In this document: positions 1 through 33,563 of the stretch, piece after piece
How positions within the stretch are numbered: the first letter of the stretch is position 1
How the letters are laid out: each line of letters opens with the position of its first letter
From: a virus
Lineage: Duplodnaviria > Heunggongvirae > Uroviricota > Caudoviricetes
Strand: one strand, 5' to 3'
Virus record (IMG/VR): IMGVR_UViG_2690316149_000019
DNA length: 33,563 nucleotides
Notes under the pieces: model-generated
What the model was told of the DNA's origin: nothing
Databases searched by the model: none
Seen by the model: only the letters and a program-made list of their open reading frames with translations
Made by a program: the position numbers and the translations under genes

Positions 1-23
1 TAAACCCTGTTTTCCTTGCCATA

Positions 24-70
24 GACACCATCCCTGTCTTCCCCCACATGATGTGGGGGTTTTTTTTATC
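24..70. repeat. attL: attL core: 47-bp direct repeat shared with 32536-32582, overlapping a rho-independent terminator hairpin (cccccaca/tgtggggg plus T-tract)
   Basis: Seen in sequence: gacaccatccctgtcttcccccacatgatgtggggg(t)ttttttttatc occurs at both prophage ends with a single G/T difference at the stem/T-tract junction. Confidence 0.85.
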
Positions 71-152
71 AATTACTTACATGCAATCAAAAGTAAAAAC
101 AGGTACTTATCGAAAGCTGTAAGGGTTTGGAGCGGTTTCAAAATTTCTTGAG

Positions 153-171
153 TGTGGACACTATGTGGACA
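153..171. promoter_or_regulatory. Two direct TGTGGACA motifs 11 bp apart; candidate arm-type integrase binding sites
   Basis: tgtggacactatgtggaca lies between the attL core and the int stop codon; the same motif pair recurs next to attR at 32468-32486. Confidence 0.45.
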
Positions 172-186
172 CTCAGAGGGGGAAAT

Positions 187-3199: not shown

Positions 3200-3423
3200 T
3201 GCCGGACAACGTGGATTTTATTCAGGAACAACAGGCTGAATTACTGGAGCGCCAGATTAACGCGGCAAGGGTAAAACATTGCGGTGTTTCTGCGCTGGTT
3301 TGCGAAGAGTGTGACGCGCCAATACCTGCTGCCCGTCGTGCGGCTTATCCGTCAGCCACGCGTTGTGTTTCCTGTCAGTCAGTCTTTGAAGCAAAAAACA
3401 AACATTACCGGAGAACGGCATGA
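3199..3423 (+). CDS. TraR/DksA-family C4 zinc-finger protein (P2 orf82 position)
   Basis: 74 aa with a C-x2-C ... C-x2-C arrangement (CEECDAPIP...CVSCQ) typical of TraR/DksA-type zinc fingers. Confidence 0.65.
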   Translation: MPDNVDFIQEQQAELLERQINAARVKHCGVSALVCEECDAPIPAARRAAYPSATRCVSCQSVFEAKNKHYRRTA

Positions 3424-3695
3424 GTATTCGTATTGAAATTGGCGAACGTTATGTCGTTACCAGTGACAGCTTTCAGTTTATTCTCCACGAGAAAAAGAGA
3501 GCGGAAAGCGGTAAAAACGCCGGTCAGGAATGGCTGGCGGTGGTTGGTTATTACCCGAAATTAGGCCAGCTCGTTTCCGGCCTGATGCATCACGATATTC
3601 TGACCGGAAGCGCAAAATCTTTTGCTGATTTAAACGCGCAGGTTGAGCAACTCAGCAAGCGTTGTTCAGAGGCTTTTGGCTCATATGGCCGTTAA
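3420..3695 (+). CDS. Small early protein (P2 orf83 position)
   Basis: 91-aa ORF overlapping its neighbours by a few nucleotides. Confidence 0.6.
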   Translation: MSIRIEIGERYVVTSDSFQFILHEKKRAESGKNAGQEWLAVVGYYPKLGQLVSGLMHHDILTGSAKSFADLNAQVEQLSKRCSEAFGSYGR

Positions 3696-5970
3696 AGCCT
3701 CCGGGCGTTTTGTCCCTCCGTCAGCATTTACCGCAGGCACCGGTAAGGCGTTTACCGGTGCTTATGCATGGAACGCGCCACGCGAGGCTGTCGGGCGCGA
3801 AAGACCTCTTACACGTGACGAGATGCGTCAGGTGCAAGGTGTTTTATCCACGATTAACCGCCTGCCTTACTTTTTGCGCTCGCTGTTTACTTCACGCTAT
3901 GACTACATCCGGCGCAATAAAAGCCCGGTGCACGGGTTTTATTTCCTCACATCTACTTTTCAGCGTCGTTTATGGCCGCGCATTGAGCGTGTGAATCAGC
4001 GCCATGAAATGAACACCGACGCGTCGTTGCTGTTTCTGGCAGAGCGTGACCACTATGCGCGCCTGCCGGGAATGAATGACAAGGAGCTGAAAAAGTTTGC
4101 CGCCCGTATCTCATCGCAGCTTTTCATGATGTATGAGGAACTCTGCGATGCATGGGTTGATGCGCATGGTGAAAAAGAATCGCTGTTTACGGATGAGGCG
4201 CAGGCTCACCTGTATGGTCATGTTGCTGGCGCTGCACGTGCTTTCAATATTTCCCCGCTCTACTGGAAAAAATACCGTAAAGGACAGATGACCACGAGGC
4301 AGGCATATTCTGCCATTGCCCGCCTGTTTAACGATGAGTGGTGGACTCATCAGCTTAAAGGCCAGCGTATGCGCTGGCATGAGGCGTTACTGATAGCTGT
4401 CGGGGAGGTCAATAAAGACCGTTCTCCTTATGCCAGTAAACACGCCATTCGTGATGTGCGTGCGCGCCGCCAGGCAAATCTGGAATTTCTTAAATCGTGT
4501 GACCTTGAAAACAGGGAAACCGGCGAGCGCATCGACCTTATCAGTAAGGTGATGGGCAGTATTTCTAATCCTGAAATTCGCCGGATGGAGCTGATGAACA
4601 CCATTGCCGGTATTGAGCGTTACGCCGCCGCAGAGGGTGATGTGGGGATGTTTATCACGCTGACCGCGCCGTCAAAGTATCACCCGACACGTCAGGTCGG
4701 AAAAGGCGAAAGTAAAACCGTTCAGCTTAATCACGGCTGGAACGATGAGGCATTTAATCCAAAGGATGCGCAGCGTTATCTCTGCCGTATCTGGAGCCTG
4801 ATGCGCACGGCATTCAAGGATAATGATTTACAGGTCTACGGTTTGCGAGTCGTCGAGCCACACCACGACGGAACGCCGCACTGGCATATGATGCTTTTTT
4901 GTCATCCACGCCAGCGTAACCAGATTATCGAAATCATGCGTCGCTATGCGCTCAAAGAGGATGGCGACGAAAGAGGAGCCGCGCGAAACCGTTTTCAGGC
5001 AAAACACCTTAACCGGGGCGGTGCTGCGGGATATATCGCGAAATACATTTCAAAAAACATCGACGGCTATGCACTGGATGGTCAGCTCGATAACGACACC
5101 GGCAGGCCGCTGAAAGACACTGCAGCGGCTGTTACCGCATGGGCGTCAACGTGGCGCATCCCGCAATTTAAAACGGTTGGCCTGCCGACAATGGGGGCTT
5201 ACCGTGAACTACGCAAATTGCCTCGCGGCGTCAGCATTGCTGATGAGTTTGACGAGCGCGTCGAGGCTGCACGCGCCGCCGCAGACAGTGGTGATTTTGC
5301 GCTGTATATCAGCGCGCAGGGCGGGGCAAATGTCCCGCGCGATTGTCAGACTGTCAGGGTCGCCCGTAGTCTGTCGGATGACGTTAACGAGTACGAGGAA
5401 GAAGTCGAGAGAGTGGTCGGCATTTACGCGCCGCATCTCGGCGCGCGTCATATTCATATCACCAGAACGACGGACTGGCGCATTGTGCCGAAAGTTCCAG
5501 TCGTTGAGCCTTTGACTTTAAAAAGCGGCATCGCCGCGCCTCGGAGTCCTGTCAATAACTGTGGAAAGCTCACTGGTGGTGATACTTCGTTACCGGCTCC
5601 CACGCCTTCTGAGCACGCCGCAGCCGTGCTTAATCTGGTTGATGACGGTGTTATCGAATGGAATGACCCGGAGGTCGTGAGGGCGCTCAGGGGCGCATTA
5701 AAACACGGCCTGCGAACGCCAAACCGTCAGCAAAGAAACGGAAGCCCGTTAAAACCGCATGAAATTGCGCCATCGGCCAGACTGACCCGGTCGGAAAGAA
5801 TGCAAATTACCCGTATCCGCGTTGACCTTGCTCAGAACGGTATCAGGCCGCAGCGATGGGAGCTTGAGGCGCTGGCGCGTGGCGCGATCGTAAATTATGA
5901 CGGGAAAAAATTCACGTATCCGGTCGCTGATGAGTGGCCGGGATTCTCAACAGTAATGGAGTGGACATAA
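3685..5970 (+). CDS. A: Rolling-circle replication initiator endonuclease A (HUH superfamily)
   Basis: Contains the HUH metal-binding motif (EPHHDGTPHWHMMLF) and the catalytic tyrosine motif (YIAKYISKNIDGY). 761 aa from ATG 3685; the six-frame ORF start at 3643 is an upstream in-frame extension that overlaps the preceding gene. Confidence 0.93.
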   Translation: MAVKASGRFVPPSAFTAGTGKAFTGAYAWNAPREAVGRERPLTRDEMRQVQGVLSTINRLPYFLRSLFTSRYDYIRRNKSPVHGFYFLTSTFQRRLWPRIERVNQRHEMNTDASLLFLAERDHYARLPGMNDKELKKFAARISSQLFMMYEELCDAWVDAHGEKESLFTDEAQAHLYGHVAGAARAFNISPLYWKKYRKGQMTTRQAYSAIARLFNDEWWTHQLKGQRMRWHEALLIAVGEVNKDRSPYASKHAIRDVRARRQANLEFLKSCDLENRETGERIDLISKVMGSISNPEIRRMELMNTIAGIERYAAAEGDVGMFITLTAPSKYHPTRQVGKGESKTVQLNHGWNDEAFNPKDAQRYLCRIWSLMRTAFKDNDLQVYGLRVVEPHHDGTPHWHMMLFCHPRQRNQIIEIMRRYALKEDGDERGAARNRFQAKHLNRGGAAGYIAKYISKNIDGYALDGQLDNDTGRPLKDTAAAVTAWASTWRIPQFKTVGLPTMGAYRELRKLPRGVSIADEFDERVEAARAAADSGDFALYISAQGGANVPRDCQTVRVARSLSDDVNEYEEEVERVVGIYAPHLGARHIHITRTTDWRIVPKVPVVEPLTLKSGIAAPRSPVNNCGKLTGGDTSLPAPTPSEHAAAVLNLVDDGVIEWNDPEVVRALRGALKHGLRTPNRQQRNGSPLKPHEIAPSARLTRSERMQITRIRVDLAQNGIRPQRWELEALARGAIVNYDGKKFTYPVADEWPGFSTVMEWT

Positions 5971-6422
5971 TGGCAAAAATTCACGAGGTAAAGCTGCACG
6001 CAAAATATTTCGACCTTGTGCTGGAAGGAAAGAAACGCGCAGAGTTTCGGAAAAATGACCGTAATTATGAGCGCGGGGACACGTTGATTTTGCATGAATG
6101 GGTGCAGGGTGTGTATACGGGGCGAAAGGTTGAAGCCCGGATAACAGATGTTACTGACCTGTCAGACTGGCTGGAAGATTATGTCTTGCTAAGTATTGAG
6201 CTGCTTAATACAGGTGCATATGAGATTGTGAACTGGAAAGAACTTAGTGAGCGTGGTCTGGTATTCAGAATTAATCATGAAATTATGCATCAGCTCGGCC
6301 TTGCTGTTATGTATGAACCAGAGACGGGGATGTCTGGCGGGGCAATGGTTGCCACGGATGGAGCATGGAACTATTCAGATGAACAGATGGAGCGTGCACA
6401 GCAAAACGGGTGGCTTGGATAA
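5970..6422 (+). CDS. Accessory protein with N-terminal ASCH/DUF3850-like (PUA-fold) domain and unknown C-terminal half
   Basis: N-terminus MAKIHEVKLHAKYFDLVLEGKKRAEFRKNDRNYERGDTLILHEW resembles DUF3850/ASCH domains. Start overlaps the A stop (TAATG). Occupies the position where P2 carries orf91/tin/old. Confidence 0.6.
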   Translation: MAKIHEVKLHAKYFDLVLEGKKRAEFRKNDRNYERGDTLILHEWVQGVYTGRKVEARITDVTDLSDWLEDYVLLSIELLNTGAYEIVNWKELSERGLVFRINHEIMHQLGLAVMYEPETGMSGGAMVATDGAWNYSDEQMERAQQNGWLG

Positions 6423-6655
6423 TGCACAGAATGCCAGGCGAGATACCGCACCATAAAACTAAAAATATCAAGCTGATGGCTGTTGTTCACCGTCTACAGC
6501 AGATTATGGTCAACGAAAATCTGACGCCCGATGAGCTGGTCGGGTGTGCCGAAATAGTCCGGGATAATTACAGACGGTTTAACGATATCAGTAGACAGAA
6601 AAGTGAGACATTTCGGCCAGCTAACATGCCAAAACCACCACCACGCAGGCCGTAG
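6422..6655 (+). CDS. Small hypothetical protein
   Basis: 77-aa ORF, start overlapping the upstream stop (TAATG); proline- and basic-rich C-terminus, no recognisable domain. Could be spurious. Confidence 0.35.
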   Translation: MHRMPGEIPHHKTKNIKLMAVVHRLQQIMVNENLTPDELVGCAEIVRDNYRRFNDISRQKSETFRPANMPKPPPRRP

Positions 6656-6888
6656 AGAACCCCGCTATCCATGAAACTTGCTTTCAGGGAGGCGGGTTGA
6701 ATAAAAGTAGCTTTGCCGAAAAGTCTAACTATCTTGGTTTTTGCTGGTCCAAAGTTAATAAACAAACCTGCTTGTATGCAGCGGGTTTCCATATTGCCGT
6801 TTCGTATGCATGCCGCACCGTGCAAAGAGTATGAAAAATGTTATGGAAAAACGGGGATTAGTGTTATATTAATGGCTGAAAAGTGGTC

Positions 6889-6917
6889 TTGACACAGGTT
6901 GTTGTGTGTGGTAAGGC
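6889..6917 (+). promoter_or_regulatory. Candidate sigma70 promoter for the peptidase gene
   Basis: TTGACA at 6889-6894 followed 17 nt later by a weak -10 (TAAGGC); AGGAGG Shine-Dalgarno at 6944-6949 before ATG 6954. Confidence 0.3.
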
Positions 6918-6953
6918 TGTATCCCTTTGGCATTCAAAATGTAGGAGGCAACC

Positions 6954-7430
6954 ATGAGCATCGCAGCTAAAAATCTGCTTAATCGCTATTGGGATCGCCG
7001 ACTACCTGTCGATCCGTTTAAGCTCGCCGCAGCGTGGGGTGCAAGAGTGGAGCCGCTCAGGGAACCAGCGAATGGGTTAAGTGGTTCAGCCGTAATAGAA
7101 AATGGCATACCTTATATTTATTTTAACTCAAATGAACATTACAACCGCCAACGCTTTACTGTAGCGCATGAGCTCGGTCATCATGTTTTAGGGCATACTC
7201 AAGACGGAGAATATCATCGCGATATTGTAGGCAACTACTCAACTGGCATCCGTGATTATCGTGAAATAGAAGCTAACCAGTTTGCTGCAGAGCTATTGAT
7301 GCCGGAAGAGGCCATTCGTCAACTAGTGTCGCGTATAGGCGTTGATAGTACATTACGTTTGGCAAACATATTTAACGTTTCTGAGGCTGCTATGCACTGG
7401 CGTCTTAAAGCGTTGGGTATGGCTTACTAA
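6954..7430 (+). CDS. ImmA/IrrE-family (COG2856-like) zinc metallopeptidase
   Basis: HEXXH motif in FTVAHELGHHVLGH and a downstream glutamate-containing motif (EANQFAAELLMP). 158 aa with a strong AGGAGG ribosome-binding site. Confidence 0.75.
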   Translation: MSIAAKNLLNRYWDRRLPVDPFKLAAAWGARVEPLREPANGLSGSAVIENGIPYIYFNSNEHYNRQRFTVAHELGHHVLGHTQDGEYHRDIVGNYSTGIRDYREIEANQFAAELLMPEEAIRQLVSRIGVDSTLRLANIFNVSEAAMHWRLKALGMAY

Positions 7431-7460
7431 TACCCTCTTTAACTTTTTTCAAACCGGTTT

Positions 7461-7495
7461 AAAATCACCATTATTTTATTAATAATGGTGATTTT
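7461..7495. promoter_or_regulatory. Perfect 15-bp inverted repeat (aaaatcaccattatt / aataatggtgatttt, 5-nt loop) abutting the ATG of the membrane-protein gene
   Basis: Seen in sequence. Preceded by the 10-bp palindrome aaaccggttt (7451-7460) and followed by a T-run; the right arm contains the only Shine-Dalgarno-like element (GGTGA) for ATG 7498. Confidence 0.6.
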
Positions 7496-7497
7496 TT

Positions 7498-8118
7498 ATG
7501 GCAGATATCGACCTCTCTGGCCAATCTCCGGCTCAGTCTTCCCAGCCATCCAAAACTTCAACCTTTCCACATCCACCTAGCGATGCCGATCCAGATATTT
7601 TGTTACGTAGAGAAGTGCATGATGGCATGGAAAGGAGGGGAATGCGCTTAGTTTTGTCAGCCACCGTACTTTTTTTTGCCATAATGTTTTTATGGAAAGG
7701 TCTGTATTTCGCTCTCGAAGTCGGAAATGGTTTGCTTGCGGCTAAAAGTAGTATTGTTTCAGCGTTGGCACAAAATGATGAAAAGGTTGTTTGCGAACCT
7801 AAAACTAAATGTATTGAGCCTAAACAGCAGACAATGAAACCTACAGAAAAAACTCCCGGCATGTCAACAAAGGGTGATAGAGTAATGCCAAACTTATCTA
7901 CAGATTGGCTTTCTGCAAGTTCGCTAATTGCCATAGTCGCTTTCATCCTTGGTGTTGGCTTGACGTTAATCCTTACCCTACTTAAGTCCGCTTTTCATCA
8001 TCCGACTGATAAAAATCTCAATGAGCAAAAAACAACAGATGCGATTGAGTTGGCGACTCCCTTAAGTGAGTTAATCGCGGGTATTATTAATTATCTCAAG
8101 AGCAAATTTTCTAAATAA
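7498..8118 (+). CDS. Membrane protein of unknown function (two predicted transmembrane helices)
   Basis: 206 aa with hydrophobic stretches LVLSATVLFFAIMFLWKGLYFAL and LIAIVAFILGVGLTLILTLL and a Pro/Ser/Thr-rich N-terminus; lower GC than the phage core. Confidence 0.6.
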   Translation: MADIDLSGQSPAQSSQPSKTSTFPHPPSDADPDILLRREVHDGMERRGMRLVLSATVLFFAIMFLWKGLYFALEVGNGLLAAKSSIVSALAQNDEKVVCEPKTKCIEPKQQTMKPTEKTPGMSTKGDRVMPNLSTDWLSASSLIAIVAFILGVGLTLILTLLKSAFHHPTDKNLNEQKTTDAIELATPLSELIAGIINYLKSKFSK

Positions 8119-8327
8119 CGTCCTCTTGGTTATTTTTTAAATCAGCACCATTAGTGCCGGTTTTTTTATGCTGTTTTACTGTAATTTCCCTGTTTTTAAG
8201 CCGTGCATGCAGCAGGTGCATGGTTTTGCATGCGCAGGAAGTGTCCGTTCTGGCCGAGCACCGGCAGAACGGACGCGGATCCAGAACGGTCATGCAACTG
8301 CATTCAAACCACCCCATGAAGCGGGCG

Positions 8328-8346: not shown

Positions 8347-8515
8347 TGCGCGCTGGCGGTGGTGCTGATTTTATTTTTTCAGCGTCTGAGCGCGTCGTGA
8401 TGGCGTTTAGATTGTGCGCCGGGGCGTTGGTGTGTCTGCGGGCTGTTTTGTGCGGTGGTGAGCGTGTGAGGGCGTGATGACGGGGGGTAAAAAAGCCGCC
8501 CGCAGGCGGCGATGT

Positions 8516-9550
8516 TCAGCCGTTGTCAGTGTCCAGTGAGTAGTTTTTAAAGCGGATGACCTCCTGACCGAGCCAGCCGTTTATCTCGCGGATCCTGTCC
8601 TGTAACGGGATAAGCTCATTGCGGACAAAGACCTTTGCCACTTTCTCAATATCACCCAGCGACCCGACGTTCTCCGGCTTGCCGCCCATCAACTGAAAGG
8701 GGATGCGGTGCGCGTCCAGCAGGTCAGCGGCGCTGGCTTTTTTGATATTAAAAAAATCGTCCTTCGTTGCCACTTCACTGAGCGGGATAATTTTAATGCC
8801 GTCGGCTTTCCCCTGCGGGGCATAGAGAAACAGATTTTTAAAGTTGTTGCGGCCTTTCGACTTGACCATGTTTTCGCGAAGCATTTCGATATCGTTGCGA
8901 TCCTGCACGGCATCGGTAACGTACATGATATATCCGGCATGAGCGCCGTTTTCGTAATACTTGCGGCGGAACAGCGTGGCCGACTCATTCAGCCAGGCAG
9001 AATTAAGGGCGCTGAGATATTCCGGCAGGCCGTACAGCTCCTGATTAATATCCGGCTCCAGCAGGTGAAACACGGAGCCGGGTGCGAAGGCTGTCGGCTC
9101 GTTGAAGGACGGCACCCACCAGTAAACATCCTCCTCCACACCTCGGCGGGTATATTTTGCCGGTGAGGTTTCCAGTCTGATGACCTTACCGGTGGTGCTG
9201 TAACGCTTTTCCAGAAACGCATTACCGAACACCAGAAAATCCAGCACAAAGCGGCTGAAATCCTGCTGGGAAAGCCACGGATGCGGGATAAATGTCGAGG
9301 CCAGAATATTACGTTTGACGTAAATCGGTGAGCTGTGATGCACGGCAGCACGCAGGCTTTTTGCCAGACCGGTAAAGCTGATCGGTGGCTCATACCATCT
9401 GCCGTTACTGATGCACTCGACGTAATCCAGAATGTCACGGCGGTCGAGTACCGGCACCGGCTCACCAAAGGTGAATGCTTCCATTTTCGGGGCGCTGGCG
9501 GTCATTGTTTTTGCCGCAGGTTGCGGTGTTTTCCCTTTTTTCTTGCTCAT
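8516..9550 (-). CDS. Q: Portal protein
   Basis: 344-aa ORF matching P2 gpQ in length and position; start overlaps the stop of P. Confidence 0.9.
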   Translation of the reverse strand: MSKKKGKTPQPAAKTMTASAPKMEAFTFGEPVPVLDRRDILDYVECISNGRWYEPPISFTGLAKSLRAAVHHSSPIYVKRNILASTFIPHPWLSQQDFSRFVLDFLVFGNAFLEKRYSTTGKVIRLETSPAKYTRRGVEEDVYWWVPSFNEPTAFAPGSVFHLLEPDINQELYGLPEYLSALNSAWLNESATLFRRKYYENGAHAGYIMYVTDAVQDRNDIEMLRENMVKSKGRNNFKNLFLYAPQGKADGIKIIPLSEVATKDDFFNIKKASAADLLDAHRIPFQLMGGKPENVGSLGDIEKVAKVFVRNELIPLQDRIREINGWLGQEVIRFKNYSLDTDNG

Positions 9551-11322
9551 CAGTAAAACTCCAGAATGGTGGATGTCAGCGGGGTGCTGATACCGGCGGT
9601 GAGTGGCTCATTTAACAGGGCGTGCATGGTCGCCCAGGCGAGGTCGGCGTGGCTGGCTTCCTCGCTGCGGCTGGCCTCATAGGTGGCGCTGCGTCCGCTG
9701 CTGGTCATGGTCTTGCGGATAGCCATAAACGAGCTGGTGATGTCGGTGGCGCTGACGTCATATTCCAGACAGCCACGGCGGATAACGTCTTTTGCCTTGA
9801 GCACCATTGCGGTTTTCATTTCCGGCGTGTAGCGGATGTCGCGCGCGGCGGGATAGAACGAGCGCACGAGCTGGAACACGCCGACACCGAGGCCGGTGGC
9901 ATCAATACCGATGTATTCAACGTTATATTTTTCGGTGAGTTTGCGGATGGATTCCGCCTGAGTGGCAAAGTCCATGCCTTTCCACTGGTGACGCTCAAGT
10001 ATTCTGAATTTGCCACCGGCCACCACCGGCGGTGCCAGCACCACGCATCCGGCGCTGTCGCCACGGTGTGACGGGTCGTAACCAATCCATACCGGGCGGG
10101 AGCCGAACGGATTGGCGGCAAACGGCGCATAGTCTTCCCATTCTTCCAGCGTGTCGACCATGCAGCGTTGCAGCTCCTCGAACGGGAACACCGACGCCTT
10201 GTCGTCAACAAATTCACACATGAACAGGTTTTTAAAATCGTCGGCGCTGTTTTCACGTTTGAGCTGCTCAATGTCGAACAGCGTGCAGCCACCTTTCAGG
10301 GCGTCCTCAATGGTGACAATCTGCCGCCACTGGCCGTCCGCACAGAGAAGCCCACCGGCAAGGGCGTTATGACTGACGTCGATTTCCACGCGTTCGGCGG
10401 CGCTGGCGCGTCCCCGGTTGAACAGTTCACCTGACCAGAACGGGTAGGCGTCGTGCGCCAGCGTGGACGGGGTGGAGAAATAGGTCGAACGCAGGTGACT
10501 CTGTGAGGCCATACCTGATGCCACCTTACGCAGTACCTGAAAATTCGGGATCCAGAAAATCTCGTCGACGTACAGGTCGCCGTTATGGCTCTGTGCGGTG
10601 TTGGAGTTGGTGCCGAGAAAAATTAGTTTTGCGCCGTTATTGCCCAGGACAATCGGGTCACCGGTCAGGTCAACGTCAACCAGACGGGCAAAGGCGATGA
10701 TGTATTCGCGGAACACATACGCCTGCGTTTTACTGGCCGACAGAAAAATCTGGTTATGGCCGGTTTTCAGGGCGCGCAGCAGCGCCTCGCGGGAAAAATA
10801 AAACGTTGCGCCAATCTGGCGGGATTTCAGTATATCGCGGATGCGGTGCTCAAGCCCGGCGCGATACCAGTGCAACTGATAGTCGAAAGACTGCTCAAAG
10901 AAAATCTGCTCCAGCTTTTCGATGGCTTCGTCACTGAAAAAATTCTTTTTCGGTTTGCGACGCCCGCCTTTGTTGCGGTTAGCGACGTTCGGATTAAGGT
11001 CTGCCTCGTTGCCGGTCTGACTGTAGCGGTTGACCCGCGCCAGTCGTTCAATCTGGCGTCCCAGCAGGTCAATTTCCTTGAAGTCACCGCCGGTTTTCTG
11101 CGGTTTGATGATGAGCTGGGTCAGCCGCGCTTCCAGGCTCATTTCGACACGGCTGATGGGGGCAACGCTGTCCCAGCCGTCGCGCTGTTTCCAGCTCTGC
11201 ACCGTCGGGCGTTTCATCTGCAACATGGCGGCAATCTGCGGCACGGAAAACCCCTGCCAGTACAGCAGCGCCGCCTGCCGACGCGGGTCGTGTAAAAGAG
11301 TGGTGTCTGTGGTGATGGTCAT
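9550..11322 (-). CDS. P: Terminase large subunit (ATPase)
   Basis: 590 aa from MTITTDTTLLHDPRRQAALLYWQGF, a P2 gpP-like N-terminus. The longer six-frame ORF (to 11352) is an upstream extension. Confidence 0.9.
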   Translation of the reverse strand: MTITTDTTLLHDPRRQAALLYWQGFSVPQIAAMLQMKRPTVQSWKQRDGWDSVAPISRVEMSLEARLTQLIIKPQKTGGDFKEIDLLGRQIERLARVNRYSQTGNEADLNPNVANRNKGGRRKPKKNFFSDEAIEKLEQIFFEQSFDYQLHWYRAGLEHRIRDILKSRQIGATFYFSREALLRALKTGHNQIFLSASKTQAYVFREYIIAFARLVDVDLTGDPIVLGNNGAKLIFLGTNSNTAQSHNGDLYVDEIFWIPNFQVLRKVASGMASQSHLRSTYFSTPSTLAHDAYPFWSGELFNRGRASAAERVEIDVSHNALAGGLLCADGQWRQIVTIEDALKGGCTLFDIEQLKRENSADDFKNLFMCEFVDDKASVFPFEELQRCMVDTLEEWEDYAPFAANPFGSRPVWIGYDPSHRGDSAGCVVLAPPVVAGGKFRILERHQWKGMDFATQAESIRKLTEKYNVEYIGIDATGLGVGVFQLVRSFYPAARDIRYTPEMKTAMVLKAKDVIRRGCLEYDVSATDITSSFMAIRKTMTSSGRSATYEASRSEEASHADLAWATMHALLNEPLTAGISTPLTSTILEFY

Positions 11323-17763: not shown

Positions 17764-18549
17764 TTATGAGTGATTTTTATTTGATGCTTTGTATTCTAAA
17801 ACCTTCTTATTGGCGTAAAAGAATTTTGTATATGACAGGAATATAACCAGACCTGAAGTGAAATAGACGAGGGATAGTATTAATAATGCTTTTTTGTGAC
17901 TGTTATTATCTTTAATCTCCTGGCTTAACCATTCGGAGTCCTCCTCGTTTAGCTGTAAGAGCTTATTGCAGGCGATTTCAGGAAGTGTGTCTTTTATAAA
18001 TACGTTTTGCAGTCTCTTGCAATCGGCAAGGCTATAAGTTTTATTAAATTCAACTGCTTTATTTTTGAAGGATAAAAGAACTTTGTCACTATAAACATAG
18101 TACATCATATTTTTATATGGTATGCCTATGGCATCTCTTACTATAGCGGATTGTTTGTTGTGTATATAACATGCGAAGAGAATATAAATAATACTGGCCA
18201 GAATTACAATTATTGTTTTAATTATGTGTGGTGGTTTTGTTATGTCACCCCAGATGCGAGTAAGGAAAAAATACGATGTTTTTAGTTTTCCATCAATCAG
18301 TCCCTGCTGTATCATTCTCACATTTTCAATGCCTGATACATTGATTCCGTTAATTATTTTAAATAGTTGAATGTCGCGCCACTCGCGGTCAAGTCTTTTT
18401 AATTTTTTGTCTGAATATCCAAAATTGAAATAATGTGCAATAAGCCTCATAAGGTTACTTTTACCAAAGCTAAAAAATGCTAATACTGCAAAGCTACAAA
18501 GGAAAAAAACGATTAGCCCCCACACATTAGTCACATTATAGCTGACCAT
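17764..18549 (-). CDS. AT-rich moron: membrane protein of unknown function (P2 orf30 position)
   Basis: 261 aa with three hydrophobic helices (N-terminal, central, C-terminal), Lys/Asn/Ile/Tyr-rich. Much lower GC than the flanking tail genes and transcribed against the late operon. Confidence 0.7.
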   Translation of the reverse strand: MVSYNVTNVWGLIVFFLCSFAVLAFFSFGKSNLMRLIAHYFNFGYSDKKLKRLDREWRDIQLFKIINGINVSGIENVRMIQQGLIDGKLKTSYFFLTRIWGDITKPPHIIKTIIVILASIIYILFACYIHNKQSAIVRDAIGIPYKNMMYYVYSDKVLLSFKNKAVEFNKTYSLADCKRLQNVFIKDTLPEIACNKLLQLNEEDSEWLSQEIKDNNSHKKALLILSLVYFTSGLVIFLSYTKFFYANKKVLEYKASNKNHS

Positions 18550-18632
18550 TACGCTCTCCTTGAATGTTGTCTGGTAGTTCTACAAATGAATCCAGATAGC
18601 ATAACTTTTATATATTGTGCAATCTCACATGC

Positions 18633-19268
18633 ATGAACACTCTCGCAAATATTCAGGAACTCGCGCGCGCACTGCGCAACATGATTCGCACCGGCATTAT
18701 CGTCGAAACCGACCTTAACGCCGGTCGCTGCCGCGTGCAGACCGGCGGCATGTGCACCGACTGGCTTCAGTGGCTGACCCATCGTGCCGGGCGTTCGCGC
18801 ACATGGTGGGCACCTTCCGTGGGGGAACAGGTGCTGATTCTGGCCGTGGGCGGTGAACTCGACACGGCGTTCGTTCTGCCGGGGATTTATTCCGGCGATA
18901 ACCCTGCGCCGTCTGCGTCGGCTGATGCCCTGCATATCCGTTTCCCTGACGGGGCGGTGATTGAGTATGAACCCGAAACCAGTGCACTCACGGTAAGCGG
19001 AATTAAAACGGCCAGCGTGACGGCTTCTGATTCTGTTACTGCCACGGTACCGGTGGTCACGGTGAAAGCGTCAACCCGTGTCACCCTGGACACACCAGAA
19101 GTGGTCTGCACTAACAAACTGACTACCGGCACGCTGGAAGTGCAGAAGGGCGGGACGATGCGCGGCAACATTGAACACACCGGCGGTGAACTCTCATCAA
19201 ACGGTAAGGTACTGCATACCCATAAACACCCCGGCGACAGCGGCGGCACAACCGGGAGTCCTTTATGA
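18633..19268 (+). CDS. V: Baseplate spike protein
   Basis: 211 aa from MNTLANIQELARALRNMIRTG, matching P2 gpV. Confidence 0.88.
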   Translation: MNTLANIQELARALRNMIRTGIIVETDLNAGRCRVQTGGMCTDWLQWLTHRAGRSRTWWAPSVGEQVLILAVGGELDTAFVLPGIYSGDNPAPSASADALHIRFPDGAVIEYEPETSALTVSGIKTASVTASDSVTATVPVVTVKASTRVTLDTPEVVCTNKLTTGTLEVQKGGTMRGNIEHTGGELSSNGKVLHTHKHPGDSGGTTGSPL

Positions 19269-24178: not shown

Positions 24179-25225
24179 GTGATATTTTCTACAAAGAAAA
24201 ATATATGGAATAACGTCATCGCGGGTACAAAAATGACTATAAAAAAAACATATGTAACACCAACAGAAATAGTGAAATATTTTTATGACAAACCGGAAAA
24301 CGATAACGTAAAAGAGAGAAAAACAATTGAGAGCCTGACCCGTCTCAAACCTGAGTGGGAAAATACTCTCGATATGATGAAGTTAATACGCAATTGTGAA
24401 AAGCTAGCAACTGAAGGTATTTTAATGGAATTATCTTCAGGACATACTCTTTTGGACCGTTGCTATTTCGCACCGAATTTCAATGAATCAGATGCGAAAT
24501 ATGGAAAGTATGATTTTATAGCTGATGGATTTGAGTCAATCATAGACCGCCTTAGTCCTTCCGTTTTACCTGTTGTTGTTGAAAAAAGTGATGGTTCACA
24601 TGATCTTGGTACTAGTTTTATTGTTGGGAATAACCACACGATATTTACAGCCAGACATGTTATTGAAGACATGAAGAGTATCAGGATACTTAGAGCTGGT
24701 GGTGAGGCTTTACCAATACATAAAATCTTTGTATCTAACGATGAACGTATTGATATCGCTTTAGTTTTCACAACCATTCCGAATGAAGATAATATTCAAC
24801 CACTTAAGGTCTCAACCAAAGCCTCGGTACTGGATGAAATTTTATCAATAGGATTTCCACCCATTCCAGGATTTGATGCATTAAAGTTATATGACGTTTC
24901 GCATATAAATTCGTTTGTCCGACTGTCAAAGGGGCGAATTGTTGGTTCTGGTCACTCTTACTTAGATTCACAAGACTTTTTATTATTCAATGCTAGGGTT
25001 AAGGGGGGGAATAGCGGTGGCCCTATAATTAACAAATACGGCTTTGTTGTTGGTATGCTTGTACAAATACCAATATCATCTGAGGACAGTTCAAAGATTG
25101 ATAACCTTGGATATGGTATAGCTGTAACAGGAAAAAGCCTGCTGGATGCCATTACATTTACAGAAAATGGCCGCGAATTAACACTCACCGACCGAGGAAA
25201 TGGAGAATATTCAACTCTAGCATAA
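24179..25225 (+). CDS. AT-rich moron: trypsin-like (S1/chymotrypsin-fold) serine protease with an unknown N-terminal domain of about 140 aa
   Basis: Catalytic triad context in order: TARHVIED (His), ERIDIALVF (Asp), GGNSGGPII (GxSGG Ser). The annotated start is a GTG; an in-frame ATG at 24233 is an alternative. Occupies the P2 Z/fun position between G and FI. Confidence 0.75.
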   Translation: MIFSTKKNIWNNVIAGTKMTIKKTYVTPTEIVKYFYDKPENDNVKERKTIESLTRLKPEWENTLDMMKLIRNCEKLATEGILMELSSGHTLLDRCYFAPNFNESDAKYGKYDFIADGFESIIDRLSPSVLPVVVEKSDGSHDLGTSFIVGNNHTIFTARHVIEDMKSIRILRAGGEALPIHKIFVSNDERIDIALVFTTIPNEDNIQPLKVSTKASVLDEILSIGFPPIPGFDALKLYDVSHINSFVRLSKGRIVGSGHSYLDSQDFLLFNARVKGGNSGGPIINKYGFVVGMLVQIPISSEDSSKIDNLGYGIAVTGKSLLDAITFTENGRELTLTDRGNGEYSTLA

Positions 25226-32582: not shown

Positions 32583-32660
32583 CTCAATTTGCCTGCTGCT
32601 TAATGCATTGCAGATGATTTGCTTCCGTTATACTAGCGTCAGTTGATAGCGGGAGTATTT

Positions 32661-33563
32661 ATGAATCAATCTTATGGACGGCTGGTCAGTCGGGCGGCGA
32701 TTGCTGCGACGGCGATGGCTTCGTTGCTATTGCTGATTAAAATTTTTGCATGGTGGTATACCGGGTCGGTGAGTATTCTCGCCGCGCTGGTGGATTCGCT
32801 GGTGGATATCGGCGCGTCGTTGACGAATTTATTGGTGGTGCGATATTCCCTGCAACCTGCCGACGATAATCACTCGTTTGGTCACGGTAAAGCTGAGTCC
32901 CTCGCGGCGCTGGCGCAAAGTATGTTTATCTCCGGTTCGGCACTATTCCTGTTTTTGACGGGTATTCAACATCTGATATCTCCAACACCGATGACAGATC
33001 CAGGCGTCGGGGTTATCGTGACAATTGTGGCGCTAATTTGTACGATTATCCTTGTCTCGTTTCAGCGTTGGGTGGTGCGGCGGACGCAAAGCCAGGCGGT
33101 GCGGGCTGATATGCTACATTACCAGTCTGATGTTATGATGAACGGCGCAATTCTGCTGGCGCTGGGGTTGTCCTGGTACGGCTGGCATCGCGCCGATGCT
33201 CTGTTTGCATTGGGAATCGGCATCTATATTTTATATAGCGCGTTACGCATGGGATATGAGGCGGTACAGTCATTACTGGATCGCGCATTGCCTGATGAGG
33301 AACGGCAAGAAATTATTGATATCGTGACTTCCTGGCCGGGTGTTAGCGGCGCTCACGATCTTCGCACGCGGCAGTCAGGGCCGACCCGCTTTATTCAGAT
33401 TCATTTGGAAATGGAAGACTCTCTGCCTTTGGTTCAGGCACATATGGTGGCGGATCAGGTAGAGCAGGCTATTTTACGGCGTTTTCCGGGATCGGATGTA
33501 ATTATCCATCAGGACCCCTGTTCCGTCGTACCCAGGGAGGGTAAACGGTCTATGCTTTCATAA
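32661..33563 (+). CDS. fieF: Cation diffusion facilitator FieF (ferrous-iron/zinc efflux), host gene
   Basis: 300 aa from [54 protein letters not shown], recognised as enterobacterial FieF/YiiP. The stop codon is the last triplet of the window. Confidence 0.9.

Follow-up and report, generated by a model that had tools for sequence, protein, structure and literature searches.

A conserved ImmA/IrrE-type peptidase and two-pass membrane-protein gene pair without an adjacent HTH gene in the cargo hotspot of a P2-like prophage

The window, that is, the whole stretch of 33,563 nt analysed here (IMG/VR virus record IMGVR_UViG_2690316149_000019), carries a complete P2-like prophage whose old/tin cargo hotspot is the seat of a peptidase gene followed by a membrane-protein gene (Table 1). 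The P2 hotspot is defined as the gpA-gpQ interval (Rousset et al. 2022), and the pair lies as hotspot cargo does, between replication gene A and portal gene Q, beside cos. Both open reading frames (ORFs) proposed in an earlier reading of this DNA from its letters alone (hereafter, the sequence-only reading) were recovered in place and on the plus strand, and the gene that it had described as coding for a small membrane protein next to the peptidase encodes a 206-aa protein with two transmembrane (TM) helices. Two other hotspot genes, the ASCH/DUF3850+DUF7415 gene (annotated homologues of which begin at MAKIHEV, position 5970) and an 81-aa ORF, are placed by comparison with other loci outside the cassette, because the homology of the cassette to those loci starts only at ~6835. 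At the other end, backbone matches to many P2-like phages start at window positions 8215-8294. Three points go beyond the sequence-only reading: that the site is the known gpA-gpQ hotspot, that the intergenic region contains a conserved hairpin, and that earlier work had cloned a homologous pair and put it to the test.

Table 1. Features of the gpA-gpQ interval in the window
Feature	Position	Strand	Basis and remarks
P2 gpA replication endonuclease	3643..5970	+	ORF; homologous loci annotated 'replication endonuclease'; left hotspot border
ASCH/DUF3850+DUF7415 protein	5934-6422 within 5934..6655	+	Pfam; PHROG 1812 and 11386 cover the 5934..6655 gene pair
81-aa ORF	6410-6655	+	PHROG 1812 and 11386 cover the 5934..6655 gene pair
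Conserved cassette leader	6835..6953	+	Nine-locus alignment; left homology limit versus other hotspot variants ~6835
Peptidase gene, 158 aa, Peptidase_M78	6954..7430	+	ORF, Pfam, active site, fold model
Intergenic hairpin and U-run	7461..7497	+	Folding, comparison across loci, covariation
206-aa inner-membrane protein gene	7498..8118	+	ORF, TM helices, PHROG 8096
Cassette 3' flank	8119..8215	+	Ends where P2 backbone (cos-proximal) homology restarts
P2 gpQ portal protein	8516..9550	-	ORF; 'phage portal protein' in homologous loci; right hotspot border

The first gene of the pair encodes, as judged from its sequence, a stand-alone ImmA/IrrE-type zinc metallopeptidase. The product matches Pfam PF06114 Peptidase_M78 (E = 8e-23, 81 bits versus a cut-off of 22) and contains no cysteine, no GAF domain and no HTH. 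Its active site is intact: H72-E73-x-x-H76 and E104 are unchanged across 38 peptidase homologues, and the HExxH motif and downstream Glu, a zinc ligand, align with the active-site residues of CapP and IrrE. An AlphaFold2 model of the peptidase (pLDDT 88) gave CapP (7t5t, 2.3e-6) and IrrE/PprI as its top Foldseek matches, the structures hit including 8sln and 3dti. Because the catalytic residues are invariant and non-synonymous divergence is low (pN 0.07), proteolysis appears to matter. Among defence-system models, the PADLOC capP model matches at 3.8e-31, covering positions 9-151 of 242, and PADLOC RmrA models match at up to 7.5e-20 (e.g. over positions 146-267 of 363), while the NCBIfam 'spr1629 family repressor/antitoxin' model matches at 7e-11, far under its own cut-off. 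We rejected filing the pair as a CBASS-associated CapP or a RosmerTA system, because the capP and RmrA matches are to the peptidase domain only and neither system's models match the membrane protein.

The second gene encodes a protein with two hydrophobic helices, TM1 (~51-73) and TM2 (~137-163), for which an N-in/C-in topology is inferred. A disordered N-terminal tail with the motif D-L-S-G at residues 5-8 and a basic juxtamembrane ERRxMR stretch precede TM1, after which come a variable periplasmic loop containing C99 and C105, a highly conserved TM2, the motif H-P-T-D (168-171), a variable linker and a C-terminal amphipathic helix (186-204). The protein belongs to PHROG 8096, a family of unknown function; searches against Pfam, PADLOC and NCBIfam gave no match to holins or other known membrane-effector families, the more distant partner proteins gave holin-like matches only below threshold (E about 0.05), and a profile of the protein run against PDB sequences returned chance GPCR matches and no solved relative. 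Its AlphaFold2 model consists of helices and disordered segments (pLDDT 57.7) and is too poor for a fold search. Constraint along the protein is uneven, being strongest on the TM2-HPTD segment and the C-terminal helix (pN 0.05 for the TM2 region), with the periplasmic loop the fastest-evolving part (pN 0.50). Synonymous sites are near saturation (pS 0.63-0.83), so that only the relative pN of each region was used and no positive selection on the loop is claimed. The low pN of the peptidase and of TM2 against near-saturated pS indicates from sequence comparison that both ORFs are real genes.

Partner proteins from other loci share this design despite very low sequence identity. All 14 compared have two TM helices, 12 of the 14 carry an N-terminal D-[LFY]-[SA] motif, and the length of the cytosolic C-terminal tail is nearly constant at 33-49 aa, with a periplasmic loop of merely 11-23 residues in many members of the clade. 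Amphipathicity of the C-terminal tail exceeded that of shuffled controls in only six of the 14, two of them right at the cut-off (at most 5% of 200 shuffles matching the observed moment). As for a possible origin of this tail in a repressor C-terminus, profile-profile comparison of the membrane-protein family with the HTH partners of related peptidases showed no similarity (probability 0.1%, E = 0.62).

The sequence-only reading had remarked that no HTH gene adjoins the peptidase gene, and the scan of flanking ORFs bears this out. HTH families had no match in the scanned ORFs of at least 45 aa flanking the pair on both strands or in one antisense ORF, and the neighbourhood yielded a single XRE-type HTH, that of the prophage C repressor (1237-1530), about 5.4 kb off. 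Related peptidases were compared in a neighbour-joining tree, with an outgroup set from a scan of species-representative genome contigs; that scan gave no close relative (best match, 49% identity), probably for want of this prophage cargo in the species representatives. In the clade of the pair, a 2-TM partner accompanies the peptidase in 16 of 16 leaves and an HTH in none of the 16. Relatives beyond the clade mostly possess an XRE HTH: it is upstream only in 46 of these peptidases and fused in 17, and two others combine an upstream HTH gene with a downstream 2-TM gene. Pfam detected HTH_3 in 41 of 64 upstream ORFs. We conclude that the missing HTH is a trait of the clade and not decay of this copy, since every clade leaf is HTH-free; the alternative that the window holds a degraded version of an HTH-partnered peptidase thereby fails.

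The sequence-only reading had also given the peptidase gene its own promoter and a strong ribosome-binding site. The ribosome-binding site stands, in that the Shine-Dalgarno (SD) sequence AGGAGG (6943-6948), 5 nt upstream of the peptidase ATG, is conserved; the promoter is plausible only, on the strength of conserved elements of predicted function. These are an extended -10-like TGtTATATT (6862-6870), kept in all genomic contexts of a nine-locus alignment, and a TTGACA (6889-6894) with, 17 nt on, TGgTAAGGC (6909-6917), conserved in the P2 and Pectobacterium copies. A generic promoter/terminator scan reported neither the promoter-like elements nor the intergenic hairpin, which were identified through cross-locus comparison.

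The hairpin (5' arm 7461-7475, loop 7476-7480, 3' arm 7481-7495) abuts the start codon of the membrane-protein gene and buries an SD-like GGUGA (7487-7491) in its 3' arm. Its minimum free energy is -19.7 kcal/mol (z = -5.1), with equally good folds in 0 of 200 shuffles, and five of its base pairs show two-sided changes that preserve pairing. It occurs in 10 of 12 distinct intergenic sequences folded; the intergenic extracts of loci L095 and L105 broke off within the 3' arm, where an in-frame ATG lies upstream of the start, and the hairpin was not assessable there. Klebsiella grimontii has an unrelated intergenic sequence with the same hairpin-U-run-AUG design. Rfam contains no family for the hairpin, and a sub-threshold mir-451 match on it was discarded as a chance match to a hairpin. 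From its sequence, the element looks like a terminator or attenuator combined with a translational occluder, and since this conserved, covarying hairpin with its U-run overlaps the SD of the second gene, it should hold down synthesis of the membrane protein, which is what one would expect for a toxin. The predicted combination of terminating transcription and masking the SD would be a neat way of setting the ratio of two proteins without an HTH autoregulator.

Examination of gene neighbourhoods, the check to which the sequence-only reading had tied its pairing of the two genes, found them always together. Among loci whose peptidase is at least 60% identical and whose downstream DNA could be read, 24 of 24 have the partner; each of the 50 matching E. 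coli genomes contains both genes, and the partner is found in eight more distant loci as well (P. aeruginosa, K. grimontii, Maridesulfovibrio, Alcaligenes, Cupriavidus, two MAGs and one viral contig); at every locus examined it lies directly downstream of the clade peptidase. The settings differ widely. In a Pseudomonas prophage the pair comes straight after a cI-like repressor, and in another prophage it lies at the end. A RepL plasmid carries it beside a KAP NTPase, and on a Serratia island an HTH-M78 Rosmer-like pair is 1.8 kb away from it. Both genes also occur as a solitary insertion in a chromosome and, at 100% identity, in a heavily decayed prophage. On this comparative sequence evidence the two genes form a self-contained cassette that moves horizontally, and its contexts are typical for defence or addiction cargo.

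A direct homologue with the same gene order and in the same hotspot has been cloned: plasmid pFR104, 'Peptidase + TM' from E. coli TA280, carried in MG1655 under its native promoter (Rousset et al. 2022, Table S2B). It appears there only under 'additional tested systems', with no defence phenotype, and does not figure with the three P2 systems that passed validation on eight coliphages (Rousset et al. 2022); we found no later validation of the pair in the literature. The pFR104 peptidase sequence matches that of the E. coli O121 allele, which differs from the window pair (about 76-78% nucleotide identity; peptidase 86% and membrane protein 65% identical). In the table as published, an internal Met serves as the start of the membrane protein, and one TM helix is noted, whereas we find a conserved N-terminal extension and two helices.

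By analogy, the closest characterised counterpart of the pair is the RosmerTA family, here taken to include RmrT/RmrA, the RmrTA of Gordonia phage Kita and S. pneumoniae RipAB. Both are modules of two genes, one for a zinc peptidase domain of the ImmA type and the other for a small partner whose family varies; the Kita partner is likewise membrane-localised, and RosmerTA modules too are borne by prophages and islands. In Kita RosmerTA, the toxin RmrT depolarises membranes and defence extends to only 2 BASEL phages (PMC10440598). ImmA-domain antitoxins neutralise diverse toxins in RosmerTA (PMC10440598), RipAB being another case (PMC12795458), by a mechanism that these studies leave open (PMC10440598, PMC12795458). 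However, RmrA is about 360-400 aa long with a fused N-terminal XRE HTH, whereas the window peptidase has neither a fused nor an adjacent HTH, and the window membrane protein, a putative toxin, matches no RmrT model. A hairpin attenuator may here take the place of HTH autoregulation.

The best sequence and structure matches of the peptidase are to the enzymes of CapP-CapH (CBASS-associated), IrrE/PprI-DdrO (Deinococcus) and ImmA-ImmR (ICEBs1). With CapP, IrrE and ImmA it has the HExxH...E active site in common, and with ImmA also a similar size and the lack of a GAF domain; unlike CapP and IrrE, it has no GAF domain, ssDNA groove or cysteine switch. In contrast to all three systems, the window pair has no adjacent XRE repressor gene and its conserved neighbour is a 2-TM protein, for which reasons we propose that the membrane protein is controlled post-translationally and not transcriptionally. 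Protease genes do stand beside cell-killing effectors in abortive infection, as they do next to bacterial gasdermin genes, and the e14 protease Lit, which cleaves EF-Tu, acts itself as an abortive-infection effector. The likeness of the pair to gasdermins and Lit is by analogy only, with no sequence or structural relationship found: the window pair has no gasdermin fold and no caspase-like, subtilisin-type or U49 protease.

The reading that we tentatively prefer, at a little less than an even chance, is that the pair is a Rosmer-like toxin-antitoxin or abortive-infection cassette without the usual HTH, carried as P2 hotspot cargo. According to this hypothesis, the 2-TM inner-membrane protein would be the effector, disturbing the membrane when free, and the ImmA-type peptidase would be its cognate controller, acting post-translationally on one of the two cytosolic tails of the effector. 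The peptidase may make contact at the N-terminal D-L-S-G tail or, as a second candidate, at the linker and amphipathic helix of the C-terminus. The second would resemble the docking of CapP and IrrE on the C-terminal helix of the repressors that they cleave; in CapP, the C-terminal amphipathic helix of the substrate docks on the peptidase domain and the cut falls just upstream (PMC13228613). With the peptidase gene first and the hairpin hiding the ribosome-binding site of the membrane-protein gene, the peptidase would be made in excess, and because of that expected excess we favour the peptidase as the neutraliser (antitoxin) and the membrane protein as the toxin, which would be set free when infection or loss of the element upsets the balance. 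This polarity is uncertain: in PD-lambda-2 it is the HTH-peptidase component that is toxic on its own. On the preferred reading the peptidase would act on the membrane protein, the latter would be toxic, and the role would be phage defence or exclusion, probably of narrow spectrum. The sequence-only reading had suggested a protease-controlled membrane effector; the anatomy and the genomic contexts fit that suggestion, and the failure of the pFR104 homologue to reach validation against eight coliphages counts against it.

Control running the other way would likewise account for the pairing, for the intact active site and for two disordered tails with conserved short motifs; here an idle peptidase would be one that, on a phage cue, clips an inhibitory tail so that the partner permeabilises the membrane in gasdermin-like fashion. 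ImmA, IrrE and CapP are signal-activated, single-cut proteases (PMC10440598, PMC13228613), and the pair is evidently tolerated jointly, pFR104 being clonable under the native promoter. We nonetheless regard such activation as unlikely: the GAF domain, inter-domain ssDNA groove and cysteine switch that give CapP and IrrE their signal dependence are missing here, a protein inert until cut has no obvious need for a conserved attenuator and SD occlusion, and the Rosmer-type ImmA-domain protein acts as a neutraliser. A distinctly smaller likelihood attaches to the peptidase being itself the toxin, cleaving a host or phage protein, with the membrane protein as inhibitor, anchor or sensor; it might, for example, station the peptidase at the inner membrane, the entry point of phage DNA and proteins, for superinfection exclusion. 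The HTH-peptidase component of PD-lambda-2 (PD-lambda-2B) speaks for this, being toxic by itself; COG2856 proteins were first predicted as toxins, depositors have named the relatives P0064 a 'toxin' and 7t5t a 'CapP toxin', and the fastest-evolving segment of the partner, its periplasmic loop, would be a fitting place of contact with phage components as they enter. Against this, a conserved device that cuts expression of the inhibitor relative to the peptidase would be hazardous, the loop is so short in many members that it cannot be a conserved functional element, and it is TM2 and the cytosolic motifs that are most constrained.

Two further explanations were considered. The sequence-only reading had offered as an alternative that the peptidase cleaves the prophage C repressor; as an anti-repressor it could cut its own C or a competitor's XRE-type repressor in trans, the membrane protein being accessory. 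P2 C is an XRE-type HTH protein (HTH_3, 2.3e-5), the characterised ImmA, IrrE and CapP enzymes all cleave XRE repressors (PMC10440598, PMC13228613), and four of six pair-bearing P2-like (pro)phages compared have an identical C protein. Yet a 100% identical pair allele stands alongside C proteins only 54% identical, another pair allele goes with a third C type (56% identical), and 469 E. coli genomes have the C type of the window, compared with 50 that have the pair. Moreover, copies on a plasmid, in the Serratia island, at the solitary chromosomal site and in non-P2 prophages have no P2 C, and the always-conserved partner is a membrane protein and not an HTH protein. Cleavage of C is accordingly disfavoured, and we consider an anti-repressor role highly improbable. 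It is less improbable, though still very unlikely in our estimate, that the pair plays no part in phage conflict and rides in hotspots as a pure addiction (post-segregational killing) or envelope lysogenic-conversion cassette. The negative eight-phage result for the homologue, the plasmid-borne copy and the intact copy kept in a decayed prophage would all be expected of such an element, and the P2 hotspot holds non-defence cargo as well, including partition systems and cytolethal distending toxin (Rousset et al. 2022). The eight-phage panel is small, however, when set against the narrow coverage of Kita RosmerTA, and the sites that the pair occupies, beside cI, in the old/tin hotspot and near defence-type genes, are enriched for defence.

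In its broadest form, the preferred reading of a peptidase-controlled membrane toxin would mean that an ImmA/IrrE clade has switched substrate, from a DNA-binding XRE repressor to the cytosolic tail of a dedicated two-pass membrane protein, and constitutes a distinct, widespread, prophage-borne abortive-infection or exclusion class of Proteobacteria with targets beyond the eight coliphages; we judge this extension speculative and less likely than not. Such a change of substrate, if it occurred, would have replaced control of transcription by a protease that gates a membrane-disrupting effector directly and post-translationally, and a peptidase acting on its membrane partner would be the first known ImmA/IrrE-family protease with a non-repressor, membrane-protein substrate. 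With 158 aa plus about 130-230 aa, the pair would then be a minimal model of toxin neutralisation by Rosmer-type peptidase antitoxins, and it would illustrate that a narrow-spectrum system can hide behind a negative result from a small phage panel. If it has no phenotype, the pair is one of many orphan cargo pairs of the P2 hotspot. If the preferred reading holds, about 1% of complete E. coli genomes carry this defence or addiction module, as do prophages of Pseudomonas, Klebsiella, Alcaligenes and other genera. Yersinia ruckeri provides a further member of the family (P0041).

The peptidase gene and the gene for a two-transmembrane (2-TM) protein behind it constitute a mobile unit. The pair is present in 50 of 5,426 complete E. 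coli genomes, with both genes in every one (the exact allele of the window in 2 of the 50), and at all 24 loci where the peptidase shares at least 60% identity and the DNA behind it is readable, the membrane-protein gene follows about 70 nt after the peptidase gene. A 2-TM protein is encoded directly downstream even of peptidases merely 43-52% identical to that of the window (Table). A neighbour-joining tree built from 116 peptidase domains groups in one clade 16 peptidases that lack an HTH and have a 2-TM gene directly behind them, every leaf of the clade being partnered; two further 2-TM-partnered, HTH-less peptidases fall outside it, as do 46 peptidases with an XRE HTH upstream only, 17 with a fused HTH, and 2 with both an upstream HTH and a downstream 2-TM gene. 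Pfam detects HTH_3 in 41 of 64 ORFs upstream of peptidases; around the window's pair, none of the flanking small ORFs scanned contains an HTH, in agreement with the sequence-only reading. That reading would have been refuted if the two genes did not co-occur elsewhere, which the uniformly paired loci and genomes contradict, or if homologous peptidases always had an adjacent HTH partner that is simply degraded here, which the HTH-less clade contradicts. We conclude that the missing HTH is a derived and conserved state, not decay.

Table. Features of the window and genomic contexts of the pair and of its distant relatives.
Feature or locus	Coordinates	Strand	Context or remark
Integrase	187-1197	minus	
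C repressor	1237-1530	minus	
Replication gene A	3643-5970		
Extended -10-like element	6862-6870		within conserved stretch upstream of peptidase gene
TTGACA/TGnTAAGGC pair			within the same conserved stretch
Shine-Dalgarno AGGAGG	6943-6948		strong; 5' of peptidase gene
Peptidase ORF	6954-7430	plus	158 aa
Intergenic hairpin arms	7461-7475, 7481-7495		15 bp
GGUGA	7487-7491		within 3' arm of hairpin
Membrane-protein ORF	7498-8118	plus	206 aa
Portal Q	8516-9550	minus	
Pair, P2 hotspots			E. coli, a Salmonella phage, IMG/VR contigs
Pair, Serratia nevei island			1.8 kb from HTH-M78 Rosmer-like pair
Pair, Enterobacter RepL plasmid			beside KAP NTPase
Pair, Pectobacterium			edge of prophage remnant
Pair, solitary insertion			between housekeeping genes
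43-52% identical peptidase + 2-TM protein, P. aeruginosa prophage			directly after cI-like repressor
43-52% identical peptidase + 2-TM protein, K. grimontii			prophage end
43-52% identical peptidase + 2-TM protein, Maridesulfovibrio, Alcaligenes prophage, Cupriavidus, two MAGs, viral contig			

The identification of the first gene product as an ImmA/IrrE peptidase is borne out: it is a Peptidase_M78 protein (PF06114, 8e-23) in which H72-E73-x-x-H76 and E104 are invariant across 38 homologues, and its confident AlphaFold2 model (pLDDT 88) has CapP (7t5t) and IrrE/PprI as closest solved structures, as does sequence comparison. It spans positions 9-151 of the 242-position PADLOC capP model, and is thus a peptidase module alone, with neither a GAF domain nor a cysteine. 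CapP is gated by a single-stranded DNA groove and a cysteine switch (PMC13228613), whereas the window's peptidase, lacking domain and cysteine, is without either. Non-synonymous divergence (pN) of the peptidase is 0.07. The strong ribosome-binding site ascribed to the gene is present; the promoter ascribed to it is a plausible candidate, suggested by promoter-like elements in the approximately 120 nt upstream of the gene, which are kept between genomic contexts in locus alignments.

A feature not spotted in the sequence-only reading lies between the genes: a hairpin followed by a U-run abutting the AUG at 7498, with the sole Shine-Dalgarno-like sequence of the membrane-protein gene inside its 3' arm. 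The hairpin folds at -19.7 kcal/mol (z = -5.1), has no Rfam family match, and is found in 10 of the 12 distinct intergenic sequences that were folded; the extractions for the remaining two, L095 and L105, end at an upstream in-frame ATG within the 3' arm, where it is not assessable. At five hairpin pairs both sides have changed with pairing kept, and the K. grimontii copy has the identical hairpin-U-run-AUG layout in unrelated sequence. To judge from this layout, the hairpin would attenuate transcription into the membrane-protein gene and occlude its translation, in which case the peptidase would be made in excess.

The second gene encodes, as proposed, a small membrane protein with two hydrophobic helices; it has no relative in Pfam, PADLOC, NCBIfam or the PDB, and corresponds to PHROG 8096, of unknown function. 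Its Enterobacterales family is a small one: clustering at 90% identity gives 42 clusters, and at 50% identity 55 are found among 1.84 billion representatives. The family alignment shows a disordered N-tail starting with D-L-S-G, a basic juxtamembrane ERRxMR motif preceding TM1, a length-variable periplasmic loop in which two cysteines are invariant, a TM2 that hardly varies, with H-P-T-D behind it, and a variable linker leading to a C-terminal amphipathic helix (ELATPLSEL...KxKFSK). By region, pN is lowest in TM2-HPTD (0.05) and rises through the C-terminal helix (0.17), TM1 (0.21), N-tail (0.31) and linker (0.39) to 0.50 in the loop; with synonymous sites near saturation, these values are read as pN and not as dN/dS. 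Distant partners have no alignable sequence in common but the same design: 14 partner proteins each have two TM helices and a cytosolic C-tail of 33-49 residues, the loop measuring either 11-23 or 49-82 residues, and 12 of the 14 carry an N-terminal D-[LFY]-[SA] motif. The shared design and pN pattern place the conserved elements of the partner in the cytosol or membrane, where they could be within reach of a cytosolic peptidase.

The best available reading is the first of those put forward from sequence, a putative protease-controlled membrane effector, which we regard as probable with polarity left aside. In its specific form, the cassette would be a Rosmer-like toxin-antitoxin or abortive-infection module without HTH, in which the 2-TM protein is a membrane-acting effector and the peptidase a post-translational controller that neutralises it by acting on its cytosolic tail; we put this form somewhat short of an even chance. 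Its polarity is favoured by gene order, by the attenuator ahead of the membrane-protein gene, and by how ImmA-domain proteins behave in RosmerTA and RipAB, and an effector activated by the protease appears unlikely. That the peptidase is the toxin and the membrane protein regulates or anchors it, as the toxicity of PD-lambda-2B suggests, is quite unlikely. In CapP, a hydrophobic patch on the peptidase domain is the docking site for the C-terminal amphipathic helix of the substrate, and the cut falls just upstream of that helix (PMC13228613), a layout that the linker (172-185) and helix (186-204) of the membrane protein resemble; the analogy is useful for action on the tail, every step of which we infer. 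A homologous pair, taken from the P2 hotspot of E. coli TA280 and cloned with its native promoter, is plasmid pFR104 of Rousset et al. (2022, Table S2B), entered as "Peptidase + TM" in a sheet titled "additional tested systems"; the pFR104 peptidase sequence matches the E. coli O121 allele (L001; 86% identical to the window in the peptidase, 65% in the membrane protein). Three other P2 systems are the only ones that the main text describes as protective against an eight-phage panel, so the pair had already been picked out as a candidate and put to the test, no phenotype being reported; we found no later validation in the literature. The eight-phage negative is weak evidence against a defence role. 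RosmerTA of Gordonia phage Kita, an ImmA-domain antitoxin with a membrane-depolarising toxin, gave protection from just two phages in the entire BASEL collection (PMC10440598). Compared with the Rosmer-type theme, the window's pair is an HTH-less variant, already catalogued as an unvalidated candidate.

The other proposal, that the peptidase cleaves the prophage C repressor, has in its favour that C is an XRE-type HTH protein and is identical in 4 of 6 pair-bearing phages with a C protein compared. However, E. coli OHT76-1 has a 100% identical pair allele with a C protein just 54% identical, a third C type (56% identical) is seen in phage record OU784750, the window's C type occurs in 469 genomes vs. 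50 for the pair, and the cassette also thrives in places without P2 C, making an anti-repressor acting on C highly improbable. The OHT76-1 prophage (NZ_CP135244.1 4410514-4429678) is P2-like and heavily degraded, with gpA truncated, portal, terminase and capsid genes lost, and an IS21 insertion; the intact pair within it fits a host-beneficial or addictive function. As the pair's sole role, an addictive or conversion function is very unlikely.

The window is a complete 33.5-kb P2-like (Peduovirus) prophage with terminase P and late genes, ending in host gene fieF. The pair lies between A and Q, in the cos-proximal hotspot that old and tin occupy in phage P2 itself, and follows an ASCH/DUF3850 gene and an 81-aa ORF. 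Rousset et al. (2022; PMC9122126) showed that this interval comes in 1,650 distinct gene arrangements across E. coli. Integration of the prophage is at the cpxP/fieF junction in those E. coli genomes that were examined (window 1-186 and 32643-33563; L135, L137, L142). The K. grimontii cassette (L131) adjoins fieF-pfkA too, yet at the opposite end, the right one, of a P2/HP1-like prophage, and the same kind of cassette thus uses different cargo sites.

In the Serratia nevei island (L005), a classical Rosmer-like architecture of a 223-aa protein and a 371-aa HTH_3-Peptidase_M78 protein (8463-10246) lies downstream of the HTH-less pair, and both kinds of ImmA-peptidase module thus coexist side by side. 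The commonest E. coli hotspot variant has a 313-aa protein with no Pfam match convergent to the pair (L002 5353-6294(-), L135 10234-11175(-)), which Rousset Table S5 groups with the peptidase under "hypothetical + hypothetical + Peptidase_M78"; the window lacks this protein, so the pair does not require it. On the Enterobacter plasmid, a 306-aa protein with no Pfam match follows the pair (L007 6663-7583). Between gpA and the peptidase gene, L001 (1983-3117) and L002 (2983-4119) have about 1.1 kb with no annotated gene, in which inspection by eye finds a strong bidirectional terminator-like hairpin (about L001 2240-2275) and a 37-codon hydrophobic minus-strand ORF with its own Shine-Dalgarno sequence (about L001 2290-2400) that could encode a small toxic peptide or type I toxin; this stretch is absent from the window. 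The coordinates of RefSeq E. coli chromosomes NZ_CP119441.1, NZ_CP148323.1 and NZ_CP064847.1 begin exactly at the P2 gpA "replication endonuclease", with the pair at about 3415-4566; many complete assemblies are affected, and automatic start-fixing may have mistaken the phage gene for the start of the chromosome, which looks like an annotation artefact rather than biology.

The window has other candidate cargo. Between the tail-fibre genes and the sheath gene, the Z/fun position noted as a second P2 cargo hotspot (Vassallo et al.), 24179-25225(+) encodes a protein of 348 aa that contains a domain of trypsin-like serine proteases (Trypsin_2, 1.8e-17). PADLOC matches it weakly to the protease portions of RT-Protease_XI, LmuA and HamA, and it may be a candidate for defence by a single gene. 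Amid the plus-strand late genes, 17764-18935 holds two ORFs on the minus strand (260 and 127 aa) that have no match in Pfam or PADLOC and may be another cargo insertion; the 260-aa protein is kept in the decayed OHT76-1 prophage also (L142 15182-15967).
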